From: Mobula hypostoma
Taxonomy: Eukaryota
Length of the DNA stretch: 64,000 bases
Reading direction: 5' to 3'
Assembly: GCF_963921235.1 (NCBI RefSeq)
Contig: NC_086097.1
Location: forward strand, 115,198,001 to 115,262,000
Shown: in pieces, positions 7,760-57,895 of the stretch
Position numbering within the stretch: the stretch's first letter is position 1
Layout: the number at the start of each line of letters is the position of its first letter
Translations under genes and position numbers: made by a program
The notes under the pieces: generated by a model
The model's database searches: none
What the model was told of the DNA's origin: nothing
What the model saw: only the letters and a program-made list of their open reading frames with translations

Positions 7760-8110
7760 GCTCCCCTTTACGCTTTTCCTTCTCCTCCATTTAGTGCCCC
7801 AGCTCCTTCCCTTTCTTCCACGGTACACTCTCCTCTATTGGATTCCTTCTTCTGTACTTTACCTCTTCCACTTATCACCTCCTAGCTTCTGATACTTCAC
7901 CTGGCCTTCATACACCCCACCTGGTTTCACCTATCACCTGCCAGCTTGTACTCCTTCCCCCTATCCCTATCTTCTTAGACTGGCTTCTCCCCTTTCCTTT
8001 CAAGTCCTGATGAAGGGTCTCGGCCTGAAACACTGACTGCTTAATCCTCTCCATAGATGCTGCCTGATTTGCTGAGATCCTTCAGCATTTAGTGTTTGTA
8101 GCCCAGATTC
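7760..8110 (+). mobile_element. Penelope-like 3' fragment with terminal repeat and hammerhead motif
   Basis: Pyrimidine-rich PLE 3' region then AAGTC-CTGATGA-AGGGTCTCGGCCT-GAAAC-ACT-GACTG at 8002-8039; adjacent to a Tc1 MITE fragment (7638-7750). Confidence 0.75.
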
Positions 8111-8149
8111 AGATGTCTTCATTAGGAACTGATTTCAGATGAATCTCAG

Positions 8150-8545
8150 GAGCTTGTGATTATAATGATAGCATATTCAGGATTGCGACAGATGGGAGCA
8201 CTATGGTCTATCGTGCCATGGGAGAGGTCCATTGTTATTGTAGTGTCTGCCATTGCTGACACATTCTGCCACACACCTTCTCCATCCTTCCTAGCGTGTT
8301 GCACCAGACAGTCAGCCATTCTTGTCTGGCGCATGGTGTCAGGATTAGTCTCCTTTCGGATTAACTGAGTCACAATATGAACGTTCCTGACTCGACTCTT
8401 GTTTTTTATTTTATGAGGCCGAGTGGCTAGCTCACCGCTCAACCCGGCACGGATGGAAAGTGTGCCTGGAGGGTGGCCTGACTTGGATTTGAACTCGGGA
8501 GCCTTCGCTCCGAAGTCCAGCACTGATGCCACTACGCCACCAGCC
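8150..8545 (-). mobile_element. tRNA-derived SINE
   Basis: Minus strand GGCTGGTGGCGTAGTGG (A box) ...GACTTCGGAG... GAGTTCAAATCC (B box); short ATC/ATT-rich tail. Confidence 0.75.
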
Positions 8546-9569
8546 TTCTCCATGAAAAAATCTTTCCGTGGACTTTGAATCAGCTTGACTGCCATTGTCT
8601 AACACCTGGTTCACTTAATGATGAATGGTACGCAGAGATGATCCTTACAAGATGTAAAGGTGAAGAGAGAAGCAGATACAGGACATGATCACCAGCTTGT
8701 TTTCATCACAAGTGATGAAACTCCAGTTGAGAAGCACTGGGACAAGAACACATACAAAGAAGTTTTGATGTTGAAAAGCTCAAAGACAACAGTGTGAGAT
8801 TTTGCCTTCACCATTCAGCTTAAGAATAGATTCCAGGCTTTACAAGACCTTGACAAGGATGTGTTAGTAGACAGGATTGACACAATGTGGAAAAAGATTG
8901 TCTCTGTCTCAAAGCAAGCAGCAAGGCTTGTCTAGGACACAGAGCAGGAAAGAAGAATGGATACAGCAAGAAACATGGGCAACCATAGAAAAAAGATGGA
9001 AATTTAAGAAGAAAGTTTCAGATGCAAAGTCAATACAACTTAAGAAGAGACTTCAACTAGCATATGCCGAAGCAAACAAGAAAGTGAAGAGACTCGTAAG
9101 AAAGGATAAGAGAGGCTACATGGAAAACCTTGCAGACGAGGCCGAAGAAGCAGCTAATTGAGGTGACCAGGGAAATATATACAAGATTTCAAGATTGGTT
9201 TCTGGAAAGTTCCAGGCCAGATCCTGTGGTCCCATGATAGATAAGAACAGTCTCCTTTTGACAACTGAGAAAGAGCAAGAAGCACAATGAAAGGAGTATT
9301 TCAGAGGATTACTGAATAGGCCTCCACCAAATTAAGAACCTGTCATACAATAGGCACCTGAGGACCTTGACGTCAACACAAATCCACCCAAGAAAGAAGA
9401 GATTGTTGTTGCAATTAAATCATTCAAGAACAGCAAATCTCCAGCACATGACAAGTTGAATGCCATACTGTTCAAAACTGGATCAAAAGTTGCTACAGAC
9501 ATGCTGCAACCACTGGGAAGGAGGACAAGGACCCAAAAACTGGACAAAGGGATTTATTGTTAGGATCCT

Positions 9570-19149: not shown

Positions 19150-22100
19150 TTCAAAATTCAAAGTAAAATTATTATCAAGGTATGTATACGTCACTATATA
19201 CTACTCTGAGATTCATTTTCTCAGGGATATTCACAGTAAATACGAAGATGCAGTCAGTGTAAATACAAAAATAGAAAAAACAAAATAACAATGATAAATA
19301 AGCAATAAATATTGAGAACATGATATGAAGCATAATGTCAGTTGGTTGAGGGAACAATTCAGTAATGGGATGAGTGAAGTTATCCCCTCTGATTCAAAAG
19401 CCTGATGATTGAAGGATATTAACTGTGTCCGAAGCAGGATGTGTTGATCTTGAGTCTTCTGTACCTACTTCCTGAAGGCAGCAATGAGAAGAGAGCATGG
19501 CCTAAATGATGGATGCTGCTTTTCTGTGACAGCGCTCCTTGTAGATGTGCTCAATATTTAAACTAGAGAGTTTAACGTAGAATTGTTGGGGGGTGGGAAC
19601 CAAACTGAAGAGACTGGGGAAGAGGCGGTTGGCTCACAAATAGAGAAAGCTTGGAGACAGTGCGAGAGGGAGGATAGGCAGGTGATAGAGAAGGAACACG
19701 CTCAGACCGACGGTTTGAAATGTGTCTATTTTAACGCAAGGAGTGTTGATTGTGAACAAAGCCGTTGAGCTAAGAGCATGGATCAGTACTTGGAGCTATG
19801 ATGTGGAAGCCATTACAGAGACTTGGATGGCTAAGGGACAGGAATGGTTACTTCAAGTGCCAGGTTTTAGGTGTTTCAGAAAGGACAGGGAGGGAGGCAA
19901 AAGAGGTGAGGGTGTGGGCACTGTTGATCAGAGATAGTGTCACGGCTGCGGAAAAGGTAGACGTTATGGAGGAATTGCCTACGGAGTCTCTGTGGGTGGA
20001 GGTTACGAACAGGGAGGGGTCAATAACTCTACTGGGTGTTTCTTATAGACCACCCAATAGGAACAAGGATATCAAGGAGCAGATAGGAAAACAGATCCTG
20101 GAAGAGTGTAATAATAACAGCGTTGTAGTGATGGGAGATTTTTATTTTCCAAATATCGATTGGCATCTCCCTAGAGCAAGGGGTTTAGATGGGGTGGAGT
20201 TTGTTTGGTGTATTCAGAAAGGTTTCTTGACACAATATGTAGATAAGCCTACAAGAGGAGAGACTGTACTTGATCTGGTATTGGGAAATGAACCTGGTCA
20301 GGTGTCAGATCTCTCAGTGGGAGAGTATTTTGGAGATAGTGATCATAATTCTATCTCCTTTACAATAGCATTGGAGAGAGATAGGAACAGACAAGTTAGA
20401 AAAGCATTTAATTGGAGTAAAGGGAATCATGAGGCTATCAGGCAGGAAATTGGAAGCTTAAATTGGGAACAGATGTTCTCAGGGAAAAGTACAGAAGAAA
20501 TGCGTCAAATGTTCAGGGGATATTTGTGTGGAGTTCGGCATAGGTACGTTCCAATGAGACAGGGAAGTTATGGTAGGCTACAAGACCGTGGTGTACAAAG
20601 ACTGTTGTAAATGTAGTCAAGAAGAAAAGAAAAGCTTACAAAAGGTTCAGAGAGCTAGGTAATGTTAGAGATCTAGAAGATTATAAGGCTAACAGGAAGA
20701 AGGTTAAGAAGGAAATTAGGAGAGCCAGAAGGGGCCATGAGAAGGCCTTGGTGGAAAGGATTAAGGCGAACCCCAAGGCATTCTACAAGTATGTGAAGAG
20801 CAAGAGGATAAGACGTGAAAGAATAGGACTTATCAAGTGTGACAGTGGGAAAGTGTATGGAACAAGGGAAATAGCAGAGGTACTTAATGAATACTTTACT
20901 TCAGTATTCACTATGGAAAAGGATCTTGGGAATTGCAGGGATGACTTACAGTGGACTGAAAAGCTTCAGCATGTAGATATTAAGAAAGACGATATGCTGG
21001 AGCTTTTGGAAAGCATCAAGTTGGATAGGTCATCAGGACCAGAAGAGATGTACCCCAGACTACTGTGGGAGGCGAGGGAGGAGATTGCTGAGCATCTATC
21101 AATAATCCTTGAATCATCAATGGGGATGGGAGAGGTTCTGGAGGATTGGAAGATTGTGGATGTTGTTCCTTTATTCAAGAAAAGGAGTAGAGATAGGCCG
21201 AGAAATTATAGACCAGTGAGTCTTACTTCAGTGGTTGGTAAGTTGATGGAGAAGATCCTGAGAGGCAGGATTTATGAACATTTGGAGAGGTATAAGATAA
21301 TTAGGAATAGGCAGCATGGCTTTGTCAAGGGCAGGTCCTACCTTATGAGCCTGATTGAATTTTTTGAGGATGTGACTAAACATGTTGATGAAGGAAGAGT
21401 AGTAGATGTAGTATATCTGGATTTCAGCAAGGCATTTGCTAAGGTACCCCATGCAAGGCTTATTGAGAAAGTAAGGAGGCATGGGATCCAAGGGGACATT
21501 GCTTTGTGGATCCAGAACTATCTTGCTCACAGAAGGCAAAGAGTGGTTGTAGATGGGTCATATTCTGCATGGAAGATGGTGACCAGTGGTGTGCCTCAGG
21601 GATCTGTTCTGCGACCCTTACTCTTCGTTATTTTTATAAATGACCTGGAAGAAGAAGTGGAGGGATGGGTTAGTAAGTTTGCTGATGACACAAAGGTTGG
21701 AGGTGTTGTGGATAGTTTGGAGGGCTGTCAGTGGTTACAGTGGGATCTTGATAGGATGCAAAACTGGGCTGAAAAGTTGCACATGGAGTTCAACACAGAT
21801 TAGTGTGAAGTGGTTCATTTTAGTAGGTCAAATATTATGGCAGAATATAGTATTAATAGTAAGACTCTTGGCAGTGTGGAGGATCAGAGGGATCTTGAGG
21901 TCCAATTCCATAGGATACTCAAAGCAGCTGCACAGGTTGGCTCTGTGGTTAAGAAGGCATACACTGTAATGGCCTTCATTAATCATGGAATTGAATTTAC
22001 GAGCTGAGAGGTAATGTTGCAGCTATATAGGAGCCTGGTCAGACCCCATTTGGAGAACCGTTCTCAGTTCTGGTCGCCTCACTACAGGAAGGATGTGGTA

Positions 22101-23670
22101 GCCATAGAAAGGATGCAAAGGAGATTTACAAGGATGTTGCCTGAATTGGGAGCATGCCTTATGAAAACAGGTTGAGTGAACTCGGCCTTTTCTCCTTGGA
22201 GTGACGGAGGATGAGAGGTGACCTGATAGAGGTGTATAAGATGATCATCTGGATAATAAGAGGCTTTTTCCCGGGGCTGAAATGGTTGCCACAAGAGGAC
22301 ACAGGTCTAAGGTGCTGGGGAGTAGGTACAGAGGAGATGTCAGGGTAAGTTTTTTACTCAAATAGTGGTGAGTGCATGGAATGGGCTGCCGGCAACGGTG
22401 GTGGAGGTGGATACGATAGAGTCTTTTAAGAGACTTTTGGAATGGTACATGGAGCTTAGAAAAATAGAGAGCTATGGGTAAGCCTAGTAATTTCTAAGGT
22501 AGAGACATGTTCAGCACAACTTTGTGGGCCGAAAGTCCTGTATTGTGCTGTAGGTTTTCTATGTTTCTATGTTTCTATTGGGGAGGGCTTTAACTGTGTT
22601 GGACAGGGCTGTACACAATACTTTTTTTTCGCTTATCTGTTTAAAGGTATTGGTGTTTCCATGCTATGATGCAACCAGTCATTATGCTCTCAACCATGTA
22701 TCTATAAAAGTTTGAAAAAGTTTTAGATGCCATGCCAAATCTTTGCAAACTTCTAATAAATTGGAAGGACTGCTGTGCCTTCTTTTTAATGGCACTTATG
22801 TGCTGGACCCAGGATAAATCCTCTGAAGTGATAACACCGAGGAAATTAAATTTTCTGACCCTTTATACCTCTGATCCCCTGATGAGGACTGGCTCATGGA
22901 CCTCCAGTTTCCTCCTCTTGTAGTCAATAATCAGCTCCTTGGTATTGTTAAAATTGAGTGAGAGGAATGTTTTGTTGTATCACTCAGCCAGATTTTCATC
23001 CTTCCTCCTACATGCTGATTCGTCACCACCTTTAATTTGGCCAACTGCAGGAGTGTCATCAGCAAACTTAAATATGGCACTGGAGCAAGCGAGTAGAGCA
23101 AGGGATTGATGGTGGTTGTGGAGGAGATGTTGTTGCCAATCGAAACTGAAGGTTTGCAGGTAAGGACATCGAAGATCCAGTTGCACCAGGAGGTATTGAT
23201 GGCAAGACCTTGAAGCTTATTGATCAGATTTGAGGGGATGATAATATTGAATGCAGAGCTATAGTCGATGAAGAACATCCTGATGTATGCATCTTCTCAG
23301 TCTAGATGTTCCAGGGTTGGGAGAAAAGCCGATGAAATGACATCTGCTGTGGACCTGTTATGACAGCAGGCAAATTGCAGCAGATCCAATTGATATGTTT
23401 CGTCACCAGCTTCTCAAAGCACTTCATCACAGTGGATGCAAATGCTACTGGACAATAGTCACTGAGGCAAGATACCACCTTCTTTATGGGTACTGCTATA
23501 AATAAAGCCTACTTGAAACAGATGGGTGCCTCAGACTACTGAAGCGAACGTTTAAAGATATCAGTGATCACTCCTGCCAGTTTATCAGCACAGATCCTCA
23601 GTACTTGGCTAGATACACCATCTGGATGAGATGCTTTCTAGGGGTTCACATTCCTGAGAGAAGCTCTCGC
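19150..23670 (-). mobile_element. Rex1/Babar-like LINE (19150-19555 and 22578-23670) split by a CR1
   Basis: Minus-strand [15 protein letters not shown] motifs (ORFs 22931-23278, 22980-23186); 3' tail at ~19150-19220. Confidence 0.75.
19560..22577 (+). mobile_element. CR1 LINE family 2, ORF2 region (APE+RT), disrupted
   Basis: ITETW, YRPP, SDHN, YRPVSLTS, DFSKAF, GVPQGSVL, FADD in ORFs 19722-21803; (TTTCTATG)n tail 22554-22577; closely similar to 54600-57895. Confidence 0.92.
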
Positions 23671-27507: not shown

Positions 27508-28405
27508 ATAGTCATAGTCATAGTTATACTTTATTGATCCCGGGGGAAATTGGTTTTCATTACAGTTCCTGTAAATAATAAATAGTAATAAAACCATAAA
27601 TAGTTAAATAGTAATATGTAAATTATGCCAGGAAATAAGTCCAGGACCAGCCTATTGGCTCAGGGTGTCTGACCCTCCAAGGGAGGAGTTGTGAAGTTTG
27701 ATGGCCACAGGCAGGAATGACTTGCTATGACGCTCAGTGTTGCATCTTGGTGGAATGAGTCTCTGGCTGAATGTACTCCTGTGCCCACCCAGTACATTAT
27801 GTAGTGGATGGGAGACCTTGTCCAAGATGACATGCAACTTGGACAGCATCCTCTTTTCAGACACCAGAGAGTCCAGTTCCATCCCCACAACATCACTGGC
27901 CTTACGAATGAGTTTGTTGATTCTGTTGGTGTCTGCTACCCTCAGCCTGCTGCCCCAGCACACAACAGCAAACATGATAGCACTGGCCACCACAGACTCG
28001 TAGAACATCCTCAGCATCCTCCGGCAGATGTTAAAGGACCTTAGTCTCCTCAGAAAATAGAGACGGCTCTGACCCTTCTTGTAGACAGCCTCAGTGTTCT
28101 TTGACCAGTCCAGTTTATTGTCAATTTGTAATCCTCCACCATGTCCACACTGACCACCTGGATGGAAACAGGGGTCACCGGTACCTTAGCTCTCCTGAGG
28201 TCTACCACCAGCTCCTTAGACTTTTTCACATTAAGCTGCAGATATTTCTGCTCACACCATGTGACAAAGTTTCCTACCGTAGCCGGAGCAGCTCCAGAAC
28301 AAGTCTCTCCAGGGTCTTCATGATGTGGGAGGTCAATGCCACCGGCCTGTAGTCACTGAGGCTGCTGGGGCGCGGCGTCTTTGGCACAGGGACGAGACAG
28401 GACTT
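27508..28405 (-). mobile_element. Rex1/Babar LINE copy with internal deletions
   Basis: ORF 27652-28017 nearly identical to 1297-1668; KSCLVPVPK..DYRPVALTSHIMKTLERL at 28281-28405; (GACTAT)n tail. Confidence 0.88.
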
Positions 28406-36299: not shown

Positions 36300-36870
36300 A
36301 GCTAAGTGGTCATGGATATTGTGTCCTCCTAGCAAGCCAGTATGCAGTCCAGGGCAGTATGACCTGGAAAGCAAGCTGTTACCTATGCAGAAGGCTGACC
36401 CACTCCATTAGCTGATGAATCCAAAGGAATGGCAAAGACCGATAGAGTTTGGTACCAGTGACATCATTGCCGGAGTTGCTAGTCAGTGTTGAACTCAACG
36501 TAGGACTGCCTTAGGGACTACAGCTCCCGATCCTTCTTTGGAATTTACGCTGAAAGCCTTCCCCATTAATGGGTATAAATGCAAGGGAGCGTAGATTTGA
36601 GATCGGAGTTTTACATCTCCTAGATGAGCTGCCAACCATGGCTGATGAGCCCCATCTGTCAAAAGAGACTGGTTTTAAGGTGTGAGCAACCCGTCATTGC
36701 CCCTTCTCATGTCAGTAGAGGTGGTTCTGCTGAATTTCACCACACGTGAAAGCCAGGAGCTGGACTTAGTTGTCAGAGGCTATTTGAGATGCACGCCATT
36801 GGAAGCATTTAATAGGTAGTGAGAGTTTATCTCCACTACCTCTCCCCTCCCCCTTGGCTATTAACGGAAC
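36300..36870 (-). mobile_element. Non-coding retroposon family H (degenerate copy)
   Basis: Colinear with 42423-42999 and the reverse complement of 51515-51942. Confidence 0.78.
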
Positions 36871-38149
36871 ATTTAATGTTGCTATGTTTCCAAGAGTAAC
36901 AGTACATATGGATTTAATACTAACATTAAAAAAAATTAAAACCACATACTGATTTTATATACCAGATTATAAATTGAGTTTACGTGCATTCAACATCATA
37001 GTAACAATTTATACAGTTTTAGGCCATTTATGATCTGCAAAAGCCAAAGTTTTTTCCATCACAACAAAAAAGGTCTTGCTTGTACTTTTTGAAATTGGTT
37101 TTATATACAGCCTTTTGGAGAAGAGTTGAGCTCAAAGCGTTTGGATTTAGTGGTAGGTAGATGAAAGCAGAAAATCAGAAATACAAGGTTATCAACCTGG
37201 ATCTATTTCTCCTCTATCAAGAGTAGGGCTGGGCCTGGACACTTGTGATTGCTTTGCCATTTAAAATAGGGCTGCTGTTCTATTCTTCTTGAAATTCAAT
37301 GAGTAAATACACGATGGTGAACCTGAATCTTATCGACCCTCGAGTTTGAAAAATTAACTGTCCCTTAATAACTAAGTTAGCTAATCCCAGGCAACACATC
37401 ACTGAGATGTTGCAGTTGACAAGTGCCCTTGAACCGGAGAGATGTAGACAAAGATCTCTGATACTACAGCAGCTTAATGGATAGCCCAGCTGACTGCAAG
37501 ACAGGAAACAGTGAGCAGGGGTAAAAGCCAACCTTTCAGAATGACAGAAAGTGAAAAGTCTTTCCACAAAGGTCAGCTGGTGTTCATTATTTTTAATAAG
37601 CTGTCTCGGCTTTGGAATCAAAAGCACAATTTCTCAATTTATGTGACAAGATATTAGGAGGGGTATTTAATACAGAGCAGGACAGCAACAATTAATTAAC
37701 TTACAAAACGCTCTTCTGATTGGCAAATGGATTTCAATACAGGTTAATGTAGGATGTTACATTTTCGTTCAGTGCAGGTTAAGAAAGGATTCTAAAGAGG
37801 ATGGATGAGTAAAAGGACCAAAGAGTTCAAATATACAACCATCACCACAAGGTGCAGGGATAAAAAACCCATAAGTACGCATGAGGGACAATTTACAGTG
37901 GTTAATTAACCCACAAATCCATATGCCCTTGTGTGTGGGAGGAAACAGGGGTACGTGAAGGAAATCACATGGTCAAAGGGAGATCAAACAAACCCCATAC
38001 AAACAGCACTTGATATTAGTATTGGCCTCCCTCTCGTTCTCCTCCTCCATCCCTTTCTTCTGTGATCCACTGTCCTCTCCTATCACATTTCTCCTTCTTC
38101 AGCCCTTTACTTCTTCCACCTATCACCTCACACTTCCCTACTTCACCCG

Positions 38150-41090: not shown

Positions 41091-43857
41091 ACCTCACTTT
41101 GGGAAGTCTGACCACCTGGCTGCACTTCTACTCCCTGAGTATAGGCAGAGACTGAAGACTGCAGCACCGGCAGTGAGGACCAAGAAGATATGGACAAGGG
41201 AAGCATAGGAGTGCCTATAGGACTGCTTTGAATCGATGGACTGGACTGTATTCAGGGATTCATCTTTGAATCTGGATGAGTATGCTGCAGTTACCAACTT
41301 CACTAAAATCTGTGTGGATGAGTGTGTGCCCACAAAGACTTACTGTACATTCCTAAACCAAAAGCCGTGGATGAAGCAAAGAGGTACTTCGTCTACTGAA
41401 GGCTAGATTTGTGGCATTCAAGTCTGGCAACCCAGGCCTTACCAGAAAACCAGGTATGATTTGTGGAGGGCTATTTCAAGGGCGAAGAGACAATGTCAAA
41501 CGAGGTGGAGATGATATCAGATGTATGGCAACTCTGGCAGGGACTACAAGACATTACTTCCTACAAAGTGCAACCCAATAGTATGAATGGCAGCAATACT
41601 TCACTACCAGATGAACTCAATGCCTTCTAAACATGCTTTGAAAGGTAAAACACAACTACAGCTGTGAAGATCCCTACTGCACCTGATGACCCTGTGATCT
41701 CTGTCTCAGAAGCTGATGTTAGGCTGTCTTTAAGGAGAGTGAACCCACGCAAGGTAGAAGGTCCCGATGGAGTACCTGGTAAGGCTCTGAAAAGCTGTGC
41801 CAACAAACTAGCGGGAGTATTCAAGGACATTTTCAACCTCTCACTGCTATGGGCAGAAGTTCCCACTCGCTTCAAAAAGGCAACAATCATACCAGTGCCT
41901 AAGAAGAATAACATGGGCCGCTCTAATGACTATTGCCTGGTAGCACTCACATCAACAGTGATGAAATGCTTGAGGGGTTGGTTATGACTAGACTGAACTC
42001 CTGCCTCAGCAAAGACCTGGACCCATTGCAATTTTCCTACGTCACAATAGGTCAATAGTCGACGCAATCTCAATGGCTCTCCACATGGCCTGAGACCACC
42101 TGGACAACACAAACACTGACATCAGGATGCTGCTCATCAACTATAGCTCGGTATTTAGTACCATCATTCCCACAATCCTGTCTGAGATGTTGCAGAACCT
42201 GGGCCTCTGTACCTCCCTCTTCAATTGGATCCTCGACTTCCTAACCGGAAAACCACAGTCTGTGCAGATTGGTGATAACATATCCTCCTTGCTGATGATC
42301 AACACTGGCACATCTCAGGGGTGTGTACTTAGCCCATGCTATATACACATGACTGTGTGGCTAGGCATAGCTCAAATGATGATACAGCTAGGAAGAATCT
42401 CAGGTGGTGACAAGAGGGTGTAAATGGCATTCGTTAGTCTTGCAAAACCATGGATCTGTGCCTGGAAAGTCTTGCATCAGTCTCTCAAGGCGCAGGCCTA
42501 GGCAAGGTTGTATGGAGGACCGGCAGTTGCCCAAACAGCAAGTGTCCCCTCTCCACGCCACCGATGTTGTCCAAGGGAAGGGCAAGGGCCGATACAGCTT
42601 GGCACCAGTGTCAGCTCAGGGGTTGCCAGAGCGAGGTTGAAAACAACTTCCGACTGCCTTTGGGACTCCAGCTCCAGATTTGTCTTCAGGGTTTACTCCC
42701 GAAGCCTTTCCCATAAGTGGGTATGGCCACAAGGCAGCAAAGTTTGAAATCAGAGCTTTACCTCTGTTAGATGGACCGCCTTCCCAGGCTGACGAGCTCC
42801 ATCTACCCAAAGCACTGGTTTTAAGGCGCCGGGACCCACCTTCGCCCTTTCTCCTGTCAGTAGAAATAGTTCCGCCGGGCTTAGAGGCTAAGCCACACAA
42901 GAAGGCCAGGAGTTGGACATGGTTGTCAGAGGCTATTTGAGGCGCATGCCATGAGGAGCACTTTTAGGTAGTGGGAGCTTGTCCCCACTACCACCCCTCA
43001 GGGTGTACAGGAGTGAGATATGCCAACTAGTAGAATGGTGCTACAGCAACAACCTGGCACTCAACGTCAGTAAGATGAAAGAGCTGATTGTGGACTTCAG
43101 GAAGGGTAAGACGAAGGAACACATATCAATCCTCATAGAGGGATCAGAAGTGGAGAGAGTGAGCAGCTTCAAGTTCCTGGGTGTCAAGATCTCTGATGAT
43201 CTAACCTGGTCTGAACATATCGATGTAGTCATAAAGAAGGCAAGACAGCGGCTATACTTTATTAGGAGCTTGAAGAGATTTAGCATGTCAACAAATACAC
43301 TCAAAAAATTCTATAGCTGTACCGTGGAGAGCATTCTGACAGGCTGCATCACTGTCTGGTATGGAGAGGCTACTGCACAGGACCAAAAGAAGCTACAGAA
43401 GGTTGTAAATCTAGTCAGTTCCATTCTGGGCACTAGTCTGCAAAGTACCCAGGACATCTTTAGGGAGCGGTGTCTCAGAAAGGCAGCGTCCATTATTAAA
43501 GACCTCCAGCACCCAGGGCATGTCCTTTTCTCACTGTTACCATCAGGTAGGAGATACAGAAGCTTGAAGGCACACACTCAGTGATTCAGAAACAGCTTCT
43601 TCCTCTCTGCCATCTGATTCCCAAATGGACATTGAAGGTTTGGACACTACCTCACTTTTTTTTTAATATACAGTATTTCTGTTTTTACATGTTTTTTTTC
43701 AATCTATCCAATATACGCAATTGATTTACTTGTTAATTTATTATTATGATGTTTTATTTAATTTATTTTTTTTCTCTCTCTGCTAGATTATGTATTGCAT
43801 TGAACTGCTGCTGCTAAGTTAACAAATCACATGCCAGTGTTAATAAAACTGATTCTG
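41091..43857 (+). mobile_element. Rex1/Babar-like LINE inserted in a minus-strand CR1 and interrupted by family H
   Basis: PHFGKSDH, GPDGVPG, ATIIPVPKK, ORF 42979-43584 (FKFLGV..KKARQRLYF..LPSGRRYRS); AATAAA + ctgatt tail; CR1 tail at 41063-41090 resumes at 43858. Confidence 0.86.
42423..42999 (-). mobile_element. Non-coding retroposon family H (577 bp) with candidate HDV-like ribozyme
   Basis: 8-bp TSD agggtgta 42415-42422 / 43000-43007 restoring the host Rex1 frame GDKRVYRSEI; pseudoknot core at 42851-42912. Confidence 0.85.
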
Positions 43858-51514: not shown

Positions 51515-51942
51515 TGTTCCTTAGGGTTATAGCTGGTGGTGGTGTGGAGACAAGCTCCCACTACCTTTTAAATGTTCCCAATGCCGTGCGCCTCAAATAG
51601 CTTCTGGCAGTCATGTCAAGCTCCTGGCCTTCACGTGTGGCTTAGCTACTAAGGCTGGCTGACCTGTTTCTACCGACAGGAGAAGGGGCAAAGGTGGGTT
51701 ACCCGAGCCTTGAAACCAGTGGCTTTGGGCAGATGGGGCTCATCAGCCGTGGTTGGCAGCTCAACTAGGAGAAGGAAAACTCTGATCTCAAACCTCCGCT
51801 GCCTTGTAGCTATACCCACTCACGGGGAAGTTTTCAAGAGTAAACCCTGAGGGAAAAATCCAGAGCTAGAGTCCCAAAAGCAGTCCTACATTGAGTTCAA
51901 TGCTGACTGGCAACTCCCTCCATGCTGCTGGTACTAAACCGT
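51515..51942 (+). mobile_element. Non-coding retroposon family H (5' portion)
   Basis: Colinear with the reverse complement of ~42590-42999. Confidence 0.8.
51532..51682 (+). ncRNA. Candidate HDV/CPEB3-like ribozyme fold
   Basis: P2 CTCCTG 51621-26 / CAGGAG 51677-82; P3 GCC/GGC; L3 TTCACGT; J4/2 CCGA; P1 degenerate in this copy. Confidence 0.5.
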
Positions 51943-53454: not shown

Positions 53455-56400
53455 CTTCAGCGGTTTGATCGGGACACAACTGCGCAAGCACGTGGACATC
53501 AGTCAGTGAAAACAGCGAGAACAGTTTAAAAGGAGACAGCTTTATAGAATGGACGCAACAGGAATAGGAATGGGCAACAGAGTAGGGGGAGACAAAGTAA
53601 GAGGGCTTTGGCTCAACGGGGCTTCGGCATTAATTGGTCGAGGCGAGGTAGGTCACCTGTGTAGAATACGGACCGGAAGTATATGTGTGAGGCAGGTGTT
53701 CTGTGCTCGGTGTCAGATGTGGGAGGTCTGGGAGACTCCAAGCCTCCCGAATGGCCACATCTGCGCCAGGTGCGTCGAGCTGCAGCTCCTTAGGTACCAG
53801 GATATGTAAATGGAGATGCAGCTCGATGATCTTCTTCTGGTCAGGGAGAGTGAGGAGGTGATTTAGAGGAGCTATAGGCAGGTAGTCACACTGGGTTCCG
53901 AGGAGACAGATAAGTGGGTACAGTAACAGGCAGGAGAGGGAAGGGCAAGAGTCAGAAGTTAGAGAGTACCCCTGTGGCAGTCCCCCTAAACAATAAGTAC
54001 TCCAGTTTGAGGACTGTTGGGGTGAGACGGCCTACCTGGGGGAAGCAACAGTGGCTGCGCCTCTGGTACAAAGTCCAGCCTGTGGCTTAGAAGGGTAGGG
54101 AAAGGAAGAGGATGGCAGCAGTGATAGGGGACTCTATAGTTAGGGGGTCAGACAGGCAATTCTGTGGACACAGGAAAGAAGCACGGATGGTAGGTTGTCT
54201 CCCAGGTGCCAGGGTCTGGAAAGTTTCTGATCATGTCCACGATATCCTGAAATGGGAAGAACAGCCAGAGGTCGTGGTACATATTGGTACCAATGACATA
54301 GGCAGGAAAAGAGAGGAGGTCCTGAAAGCAGGCTACAGGAAGTTAGGAAGGAAGTTGAGAAGCAGGACCACAAAGGTGGTAATCTCAGGATTACTGCCTG
54401 TGACATGTCAGTGAGCATAAGAATAAAGTGAGGTGGAGGATAAATGCGTGGCTGAGGGGTTAGAGCAAGGGGGAGAGATTCAGATTTCTGGATCATTGGG
54501 ACCTCTTTGGGGGCAGGATTGACTTGTATAAAAAGGACAGATTGCACTTGAATCCCCAGGGGAAAAATATCCTGGCGGGAAGGTTTGCTAAGGCTATTGG
54601 GGAGAGTTTAAACTAGAATTGCTGAGGGGTGGGAATCGAACTGAAGTGACGGAGGAAGGGGTGGTAGGCTTACAAATAGAGAAAGCTTGGAGACAGTGCG
54701 AGAGGAAGGATAGGCAGGTGATAGGGAAGGGACATGCTCAGACCAATGGTTTGAGGTGTGTCTATTTTAATGCAAGGTGTATTGTGAACAAAGCAGATGA
54801 GCTTAGAGCGTGGATCAGTACTTGGAGCTATGATGTTGTGGCCATTACAGAGACTTGGATGGCTCGGGCAGGAATGGTTACTTCGAGTACCAGGCTTTAG
54901 AGGTTTCAGAAAGGACAGGGAGGGAGGCAAAAGCGGTGGGGACGTGGCACTGTTGATCAGAGATAGTGTCACGGCTGCAGAAAAAGAGGAAGCCATGGAG
55001 GGATTGTCTACAGATTCTCTGTGAGTGGAAGGTAGGAACAGGAAGGGGTCAATAACTCTACTGGGTGTTCTTTATAGACCAACCAATAGAAACAGGGACA
55101 TCGAGGAGAAGATATGGAGACAGATTCTGGAAAGGTGTGTAGGATTTCTCTGTAATGTTAACTGCTAAGGCTAATTTAATGGCTTCTCTGTAATGTTAAC
55201 TGATGGGGTAATGGTTTCTCTGCAGCTGTAATGTTTGGGTTATAACTATAGATAACGGGTGACTATCCAATGGGAGAAATGTTATTCTTTCTTGTATGTC
55301 TGGGAGCCAGGGTTTTTGGCTGAAGAGAGTGAGAGGAAGGCTGGGAGACCACTGGACAGCGTATCCTGGAATCCGAGGATCCGAGGGTCGGTGAAGTTTC
55401 GGTAGAGGTCATTTGTGGAGGAATACCTGCTGAGTGAGCGCCAACGCATATTGAGACTTTAACTTTGGGCCCTTTTACTTTTGTTTATTTTCCTACTAAT
55501 CTTATATTCAGAATAAGATTCATAGAGTTTATCATTTGATTGTATATGGTGTACTGTCTGATATTTTGCATTGTGGGTTTGTGAACGGGAGTATATTACA
55601 CCACATCCACCCAAACTTGAAAATCCTGTTTGGCGGGGCTGAAAGCTGATTCACCTGGACAAACTTGACCGGAAAGCCTGGTGGGTTACAGGTGTAATCA
55701 TAACAGAGTTGTTGTGGTGGGAGATTTCAATTTCCCAAATATCGATTCTCATGTCCCTAGAGTGAGGGGTTTAGATGGTGTAGAGTTTGTTAGGTGTATT
55801 CAAGAAGGTTTCTTGACACAATATGTAGATAAGCCTACAAGAGGAAAAGCTGTACTTGATCTGGTATTGGGAAATGAACCTGGTCAGGTGTCAGATCTCT
55901 CAGTGGGAGAGCATTTTGGAGATAGTGATCACAATTCTATCTCCTTTACCATAGCATTGGAGAGGGATAAGAACAGACAAAGTTAGGAAAGCATTTTATT
56001 GGAGTAAGGGAAATTGTATGGAAGAAATGTGGCAAATGTTCAGGGGATATTTGTGTGGCGTTCTGCATTGGCACGTTCGAATGAGACAGGGTAGGGTACA
56101 GGAACCATGGTGTACAGAGGCTGTTGTAAATATCGTCAAAAAGAGAAGAACTTACGAAAGGTTCAAAAAACTAGGTAAAAATAGAGATCTAGAAGATTAT
56201 AAGGCTAGCAGGAAAGAACTTAAGAAAGCTATTTTGAGAGCCAGAAGGGGCCATGAGAAGGCCTTGGCAGACAGGGTTAAGGAAAACCCCAAGGCATTCT
56301 ACAAGTATGTGAAGAGTAAGAGGATAAGATTTGAGAGAATGGGACCAATCAAGTGTGACAGTGGAAAAGTATGTATGGAACCGGAAGAGTTAGCAGAAGT

Positions 56401-57895
56401 ACTTAGTGAGTACTTTGCTTCAGTATTCACTACGGAAGAGGATCTTGGCAATTGTAGGGATAACTTACAGCGGACTGAAAAGCTTGAGCATGTAGATATT
56501 AAGAAAGAGGATGTGCTGGAGCTTTTGAAAATCACCAAGTTAGATAACTCACTGGGACCAGATGAGATGTACCCCAGGCTGCTGTGAGAGGCGAGGGAGG
56601 AGATTGCTGAGCCTCTGGTGATGATCTTTGCATCATCAATGGGGACGGGAGAGGTTCTGGAGGATTGGAGGGTTGTGGATGTTATTCCATTATTCAAGAA
56701 AAGGAGTTGAGATAGCAGAGGAAATTATAGACCAGTGAGTCTTACTACAGTGGTTGATGGAGAATTTGTTGGAGAAGATCCCGAGAGGCAGGATTTATGA
56801 ATATTTGGAAAGGAATAATATGATTAGGAATAGTCGACATGGCTTTGTGAAGCAGGTTGTGCCTTATGAGCCTGATTGAATTTTTTGAGGATGTGACTAA
56901 ACACATTGATGAAGGTAGAGCAGTAGATGTAGTGTATATGGATTTTAGCAAGGCATTTAACATCATACCCCATGCATGGGTTATTGAGGTAGTAAGGAGG
57001 CATGGGGTCCAAGGTGACATTGCTTTGTGGATCCAGAACTGGCTCGCCCACAGAAAGCAAAGATTGGTTGTAGATGGGTCATATTCTGCATGAAGATTGG
57101 TCACCAGTGGTGTGCCTGAGGGATCTGTTCTGGGACCCCTACTCTTCTTTTATTAATGACCTGGATGAGGAAGTAGAGGGAGAATTTAGTAAATTTGCTG
57201 ATGACACAAAGGTTGGAGGTGTTGTGGATAGTATGGAGGGCTGTCAGAGGTTACAGCGGGACATTGATAGAATGCAAAACTGGGCTGAGAAGTAGCATAT
57301 GGAGTTCAACCCAGATAAGTGTGAGGTGGTTCATTTTGGTAGTTTAAATATGATGGTAGGGTATAGCATTAATGGCAAGACTCTTGGCAATTTGGAGGAT
57401 CAGAGGGATCTTGGGGTCCGAGTTCATAGGACAGTCAAAGCTGCTACGCAGGTTGATTCTGTGGCTAAGAAGGCATATGGTGCATTGGCCTTCATCAACC
57501 GTGGGATTGAGCTTAGGAGCCGAGAGGTAATGTTGCAGCTATGATGAGAGGCATTGATCGTGTGGATAGTCAGAGGCTTTTTCCTAGGGCTGTAATGACT
57601 AGCATGAGAGGGGACAGTTTTAAGTTGCTTGGAAGTAGGTACAGAGGAGATGTCAGGGGTAAGTTTTTTACGCAGAGCGTGGTGAGGGCACTGAATGGTC
57701 CGCCGGCGACGGTGGTGGAGTTGGAAACGATAGGGTCTTTTAAGAGACTCCTGGACAGGTACATGGAACTCAGAAAAATAGAGGGCTATGTGTAACCCTA
57801 GGTAATTTCTAAAGGTAAGGACATGTTCGGCTCAGCATTGTAGGCCAAAGGGCCTGTATTGTGCTGTAGGTTTTCCATGTTTCAATGTTTCTATG
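53455..57895 (+). mobile_element. Near full-length CR1 family 2 (5'UTR, ORF1, ORF2), with LTR insertion and internal deletions
   Basis: ORF1 CARCQMW..HICARCVELQLL and IGDSIVRG/HIGTND esterase; ORF2 APE/RT; tttctatg-like tail; itself splits an older minus-strand CR1 piece (53300-53450, 57897-58090). Confidence 0.9.
55138..55690. mobile_element. Solo LTR, family B
   Basis: TGTA...TACA termini, 4-bp TSD GGTG (55134-55137 / 55691-55694); interrupts the CR1 APE frame QILERC|NHNRVVV. Confidence 0.87.

Follow-up and report, generated by a model that had tools for sequence, protein, structure and literature searches.

A bipartite LINE derivative in Mobula hypostoma with a predicted HDV-like ribozyme at its 5' end

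The window, by which we mean the whole 64-kb stretch of Mobula hypostoma DNA analysed here, is full of repeats. Many short interspersed and inverted repeats lie across it, and its long repeat pairs (19566-22578 / 54602-57894 and 1013-1814 / 27508-28284) are 83-92% identical. Three copies of one retroposon family lie in the window, a single copy of subfamily A with its flanking TSDs and two copies of subfamily B:

42423..42999, minus strand: copy of subfamily A, a bipartite non-autonomous LINE, with 20 nt missing from the start of the family sequence
43000..43007, minus strand: 5' TSD of this copy, 8 bp
42415..42422, minus strand: 3' TSD of this copy, 8 bp
51515..51940, plus strand: copy of subfamily B, 5' end nearly complete, 3'-truncated, P1' strand decayed
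36300..36871, minus strand: an old, decayed copy of subfamily B, with part of its L3 hairpin deleted and a mutated P2'

As the initial annotation had it, the three copies are homologous (72-80% mutual identity) and the 8-bp TSD TACACCCT exactly bounds 42423-42999. This copy also has no credible ORF, its longest stop-free frame being 115 aa. Each window copy has 8,024-8,653 first-look candidates in the 3.48-Gb genome, 40 of which were scored per search. Subfamily A is a discrete family of ~595 nt: the 42423-42999 copy is nearly fully covered by its 39 best relatives, at 89-92% identity. Subfamily B is older and its tail differs from that of A. Both remaining window copies belong to it: 51515..51940, which ends near 51940, matches the B copy L037 with 84% identity over 428 nt, and 36300..36871 matches the same copy with 77% identity. 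The family has retrotransposition features of its own (many copies with a common junction, TSDs and a short repeat tail) and is present in contigs of four sequencing runs (contigs cannot show RNA ends).

Both parts of the subfamily A copy can be traced to a LINE in the same genome:

42482..42999, minus strand: part from the LINE 5' UTR (family positions ~21-540), by comparison with LINE copies
42423..42483, minus strand: ~59 nt from the 3' end of the LINE, overlapping the 5' part by 2-3 nt (AGA)
42712..42778, minus strand, approximate limits: conserved RTE 5'-UTR domain (the RTE half of the Ceph-domain), matched by eye

An exact 33-nt motif from the tail has 422 matches in the genome, against 0 for the control. 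Among 30 loci fetched by the tail alone, 21 have only the last 40-60 nt in common with the short element, and 7 of these 21 have 700-1,500 nt of upstream sequence in common. Four of 24 longer stretches (L161, L162, L170 and L173) start with the 5' 540 nt of the short element and then run into an ORF; in three of the four, the tail is found ~4.0-4.3 kb downstream. The 42423-42999 copy aligns to L162 and L173 with 89% identity over query positions 2-519 and 86% over positions 518-576, and subfamily A as a whole matches L161, L162, L170 and L173 at positions 1-540 and again over their final 59 nt. Since the 5' 540 nt and the tail are both found in the LINE copies, and the junction falls at the AGA overlap, subfamily A is a bipartite non-autonomous LINE from which the ORF is absent and whose two ends were joined by internal deletion. 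The SINE-like element that had been proposed is thus not of separate origin but the two ends of one LINE, and the putative ribozyme would have been inherited from the 5' UTR of that autonomous element. For subfamily B, the 30 loci retrieved with a query across the junction included no autonomous partner.

A Pol III SINE with a tRNA, 5S or 7SL head was considered and rejected: the 5' end is LINE UTR, there is no A/B box pair in it, and an Rfam scan of the window gave no tRNA or 5S match. The earlier statement that the family lacks Pol III boxes holds for 42423-42999; the 36300 and 51515 copies carry B-box-like words ~385 nt in, too internal for a Pol III head.

Other elements use the same tail. 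L140 is a different internal-deletion derivative, in which the 5' 529 nt are followed by ~437 more nt and then the same tail. In L139, L142, L146 and L152 what is shared is limited to the final ~42 nt of the tail, and three of them continue into similar downstream sequence; these loci possibly represent another element that uses this 3' end.

The ORF of the LINE copies encodes an endonuclease and an RVT_1 domain. Most of its relatives are proteins of ~1,045 aa from contigs of ~4 kb, and the best named match is a protein of Pristis pectinata (86%). We take the protein to be RTE-like in appearance. The LINE has a single APE and RT ORF, a short 3' UTR with a short-repeat tail and the RTE 5'-UTR domain, all of them RTE features. 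By eye, the domain matches the rows for RTE-8_HRo, RTE-4_NV and RTE-3_BF in the supplement of Kojima 2018 (PMC5786205); among the rows compared it occurs beyond RTE as well, in Ingi-3_AC and R4-1_ADi. Judged from sequence, the parent is likely a ~4-kb APE-RT LINE of the RTE clade in the same genome, in keeping with the link to RTE-type elements that had been suggested.

The start of the LINE ORF is unusual. In all four copies the first in-frame ATG lies downstream of the endonuclease motif W-N-I-R-T, the same in-frame stops precede the ORF (element positions ~770-880, 4/4 copies), and in three of the four an open frame of more than 100 codons lies ahead of these stops in the same frame. The W-N-I-R-T motif is missing from the first 200 aa in 77 of 120 homolog predictions. 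This arrangement suggests that initiation may be non-AUG or recoded. In L173, a segment of ~72 nt directly upstream of the ORF is tandemly repeated.

A search with DUF6451 returned two LINE families that were rejected as parent because they are other families. A second, unrelated APE-RT LINE family (L111, L118, L127 and L128) has DUF6451, a 1,018-aa open frame in L111 and a GAA-repeat tail. Its 5' end is sharp, with a complementary strand ~60 nt downstream, and it possibly carries another 5' ribozyme.

Subfamilies A and B and the LINE all start with GGTTCC, and this boundary is sharp. Among 29 A copies, 20 come within 3 nt of the first G (G1), as do 37 of the 53 B copies, and no column upstream of it is conserved above 53% (copies in the window itself, two anchorless loci and three duplicates are not counted). 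G1 and G2 are each retained in only ~55% of copies. When B loci were selected by their tail, the 5' block survived in 21 of 29, and each of positions 3-8 is conserved in 15-21 of these 21. T is enriched at position -1 of the B copies (28/53, and 12/21 in the tail-selected set). TSDs were found for 22 of 36 copies, compared with 3.4% of 1,260 mismatched pairs; 11 of the 22 end no more than 1 nt from G1, 5 end 6-13 nt upstream of it and 6 end inside the element.

The TSD of the 42423-42999 copy ends at family position +20. This copy is therefore 5'-truncated, and its truncation accounts for the placement of G1 in the initial annotation, 17-20 nt downstream of GGTTCC (at position 18 in A and 21 in B). 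The ~15 nt that two copies were said to share upstream of that G1 are real: they are the true 5' end.

Downstream of the boundary, the following parts of a predicted HDV-like fold can be placed in the subfamily A copy:

42921..42999, minus strand: remnant of the J1/2 (P1.2) domain, comprising the closing helix's 3' strand (42921-42928) and an inner 9-bp hairpin (42967-42992)
42907..42912, minus strand: predicted P2 5' strand
42897..42906, minus strand: P3 5' strand (42904-42906) and 7-nt L3 core (42897-42903), with one C-to-T change in this copy
42877..42896, minus strand: 20-nt insertion predicted in L3, with a 7-bp hairpin at 42878-42894
42866..42876, minus strand: P3' (42874-42876), P1' (42868-42873) and P1.1 partner (42866-42867; AT here, GT in the family)
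42851..42860, minus strand: J4/2 (CTGA), whose C at 42860 is predicted to be catalytic, and P2' (42851-42856)

The motifs for P2, P3, L3, J4/2 and P2' lie where they had been reported, and an HDV/CPEB3-type core at the 5' end of this non-coding retroposon is supported as a predicted fold. What changes is how the core is closed. P1 consists of 6 bp between GGTTCC and GGAACY, and GGAACY directly follows the second GGC, so that P1' comes directly after P3' and P2 crosses P1. We compared 41 rows (21 A/LINE and 20 B), picked for at most one mismatch to GGTTCC, a choice that favours the counts for the P1 5' strand. The six P1 pairs are present in 18-21 of the 21 A/LINE rows, and one P1 difference is fixed between the subfamilies, G1-U in A and G1-C in B. 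The GT after P1' gives one C-G pair and a U-U, as in CPEB3; the GG that had been named as P1.1 was not confirmed. The C-G pair is present in 20/21 A rows and 9/20 B rows. The weak positions in B, the sixth P1 pair and the P1.1 G, are CpG sites with CA/TG decay, which explains their low counts. A pattern search of the same genome for P1' variants gave 5 scattered matches and no variant subfamily.

P2 (6 bp) is paired in 95.5% of cells and P3 in 84.3%, and J4/2 is CTGA in 38 of 41 rows (21/21 A and 17/20 B), with CTAA at this place in the relative L249. Only 5 nt occupy the place of P4, so the predicted fold has no P4. J1/2 is ~105 nt long and closed by an 8-bp helix; linkers of 2-4 and 8 nt flank P1.2.

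L3 is the most divergent part. Positions U20, C22 and G25 are present, but the loop is 27 nt long, compared with 7-8 nt in HDV and CPEB3, owing to a hairpin insert. This 7-bp hairpin is paired in 96% of cells and ties up the first GGC, which puts the 20-nt insert on the 3' side of L3 instead of between P3 and P1, where the initial annotation had it. The position of P3' is anchored by relatives that have no insert. P3 is nonetheless able to pair with the first GGC in 21/21 A rows, and this GGC could act as P3' whenever the L3 hairpin does not form. The 42423-42999 copy itself is not an active ribozyme: its P1 5' strand was lost by truncation on insertion, and it cannot cleave.

Parts of the core recur in distant LINEs. 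A metagenome scan yielded 80 related LINE loci, and we examined the 25 in which the match starts near the protein N-terminus. A relaxed P3-L3 motif, defined after viewing the same 25 loci, is present on the sense strand in 9 of them and on the antisense strand in 2; shuffled sequences gave a mean of 0.72 and a maximum of 4, and 0/100 shuffles reached 9. The motif lies 425-863 nt upstream of the ORF match, and an HMM of the UTR found the core region in L249 and L225. L3 is a plain 7-nt loop in six of the nine relatives, and carries a hairpin insert of 19-20 nt in L197, L225 and L249, that of L197 being a hairpin of unrelated sequence. L185 and L197 each have a perfect 7-bp G-first P1, with different sequences and with the 3' strand directly after P3'. 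These two helices anchor the register, which is not the same as a formal covariation test, and a perfect G-first P1 partner was not found in the other 7 of the 9 motif-bearing relatives. A strict descriptor gave 3 sense matches in the 25 distant loci, of which L204 looks like chance, and the core pattern had 0 matches in viral contigs and 0 in genome contigs.

Taken as a whole, the element is an internally deleted APE-RT LINE, likely of the RTE clade, and its first ~170 nt are predicted to form an HDV-like ribozyme cutting before the first G, a reading that we consider probable. A longer Pol II transcript would fold into the double pseudoknot, with P1 formed by GGUUCC and GGAACY, a CPEB3-like P1.1 of one pair and no P4, and the hairpin inserted in L3 would stick out on the 3' side of that loop. 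The C of J4/2 would serve as the catalytic base, and self-cleavage would yield the defined 5' end. Next, the LINE protein would bind the 3' end that the element has kept and, through target-primed reverse transcription, integrate the RNA. A broader proposal, for which we see the balance as even, is that an active HDV-like subtype with an L3 hairpin and no P4, invisible to standard HDV models, heads a widespread RTE branch and its short derivatives and has defined the 5' start of thousands of copies in one vertebrate genome.

The alternative that survives best, though we think it unlikely, is that a Pol II promoter inside the LINE 5' UTR sets the 5' end, the fold being a weak or vestigial ribozyme or serving RNA stability or translation initiation. 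A promoter would likewise give a sharp 5' end, L3 is unusual for a ribozyme, and the five TSDs that end 6-13 nt upstream of G1 fit such a start. Moreover, Kojima 2018 (PMC5786205) holds that Pol II very probably transcribes bipartite LINEs and that their 5' regions drive transcription. However, P1 begins at the boundary itself, where by simple arithmetic a G-first 6-nt complement would occur by chance in under 1% of cases even with G-U pairs and a 1-nt shift allowed, and LINEs with as little as 41-46% protein identity still carry the catalytic-core motif.

The fold first proposed for this DNA, with G1 at GCCGRG, CCCGGC as P1', GG as P1.1, the first GGC as P3' and an insertion between P3 and P1, is very improbable. 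It draws on the pairing of P3 with the first GGC noted above, and its six P1 pairs are present in 15-18 of the 20 B rows. Its P1 is complementary in B only: in subfamily A, to which the flagged copy belongs, position 5 is an A-C mismatch in 21/21 A/LINE rows, and the consensus lacks a GCCGGG/CCCGGC P1. Nor does its cleavage site match the boundary, since 28/29 A and 49/53 B copies extend upstream of it. The strand it assigns to P1 pairs inside the long hairpin of J1/2, where one A-U pair in one subfamily is G-C in the other. Constrained folding prefers the GGTTCC P1 in 21/21 A and 18/20 B rows (39/41), with mean energies of -51 versus -33 kcal/mol in A and -37 versus -29 kcal/mol in B. In known ribozymes, P1' comes immediately after P3/L3 (PMC3774820).

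Chance pairing in a GC-rich structured UTR is the least probable reading of all: it is in line with an Rfam scan of the window (E<=10) that gave 8 weak matches, none HDV-like and none to HDV or CPEB3, and with covariation that is not significant, but 16 of 87 copies match the strict descriptor for the core, against just 6 of 500 shuffled loci, all helices are in HDV order, and in distant relatives the spacing between core and ORF is similar. The covariation values across the genomic (dead) copies were reached by 15-37 of 500 shuffles, as expected of copies that decay neutrally. Two folding results also count against the predicted structure: RNAalifold returned another nested fold, with a covariation term of -0.63, and did not recover the predicted one; free MFE folds are 9-12 kcal/mol lower than the constrained nested part, from which P2 is omitted. 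In 5 copies, the strict descriptor has the P1 partner coincide with the first base of the element.

Ruminski and colleagues reportedly described HDV-like ribozymes in RTE and further non-LTR elements in 2011. The predicted ribozyme resembles this kind: drz-Agam-2-1 (PMC4908430) and other ribozymes of RTE and non-LTR elements are likewise at the LINE 5' terminus, with a large structured J1/2 (P1.2) and a P1 of 6-7 bp. The family described here differs in its 20-nt L3 hairpin insert, missing P4 and short P2. In the Agam-2-1 constructs reported there, long linkers around P1.2 and a short P2 slow cleavage, and this geometry counts against activity here, given linkers of 2-4 and 8 nt and a 6-bp P2. 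A 6-bp P1 and an absent P4 both occur among R2 ribozymes (PMC3774820). Likeness to the CPEB3 ribozyme, in which P1.1 is a G-C and a U-U pair according to a preprint (bioRxiv 2022.09.22.508989), is limited to the core, with no Rfam match in the window: L3 is UUCACGU (in B), the G-U after P1' gives a one-pair P1.1 with U-U, and J4/2 starts with C. CPEB3 is a single-copy intronic RNA with a short J1/2, a P4 and a 7-nt L3.

The overall arrangement is therefore already known, and the 6-bp P1, the missing P4 and the long J1/2 each have precedent; the L3 hairpin is the unusual part of the family. Our literature search, which did not extend to Ruminski 2011 and its supplements, returned nothing on such a hairpin or on this family. 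If the ribozyme is active, L3 of HDV-like ribozymes tolerates a whole hairpin, and descriptor and Rfam searches would undercount the class, particularly in vertebrate RTE elements. RTE UTRs are being engineered for gene writing (PMC13708176).

Bipartite elements of this type have been described. According to a review, RTEs and some SINEs are freed from co-transcripts by HDV-like ribozymes. Kojima 2018 (PMC5786205) reports bipartite RTE elements, including RTE-N2_Lch (214 + 70 bp), RTESINE2, WALLSI3 and Bov-A, and links the retained 5' ends of such elements to ribozymes; the accessible part of that paper gives no fold for them. Like subfamily A, these elements combine an RTE-type 5' UTR, including the conserved RTE 5'-UTR domain, with a short 3' end and have no RNA-derived head, but the 5' part is longer here (540 nt). 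Why headless non-autonomous elements arise in the RTE, Ingi/Vingi and R2 clades is left open there, and a LINE and a short derivative with matching 5' ends offer a direct test of the role of ribozymes in them. The nearest precedent for the whole is found in Drosophila, where R2 SIDEs and R2/R1 SIDEs are ribozyme-headed internally deleted LINEs (Eickbush and Eickbush 2012, PMC3414825). As described there, R2 SIDEs are likewise non-autonomous products of internal deletion that retain the 3' end of the LINE together with an HDV-like ribozyme at the 5' end. In Mobula hypostoma the ribozyme is a prediction, and the parent is an APE-type, dispersed LINE instead of the rDNA-specific R2, with thousands of copies of the family in the genome.
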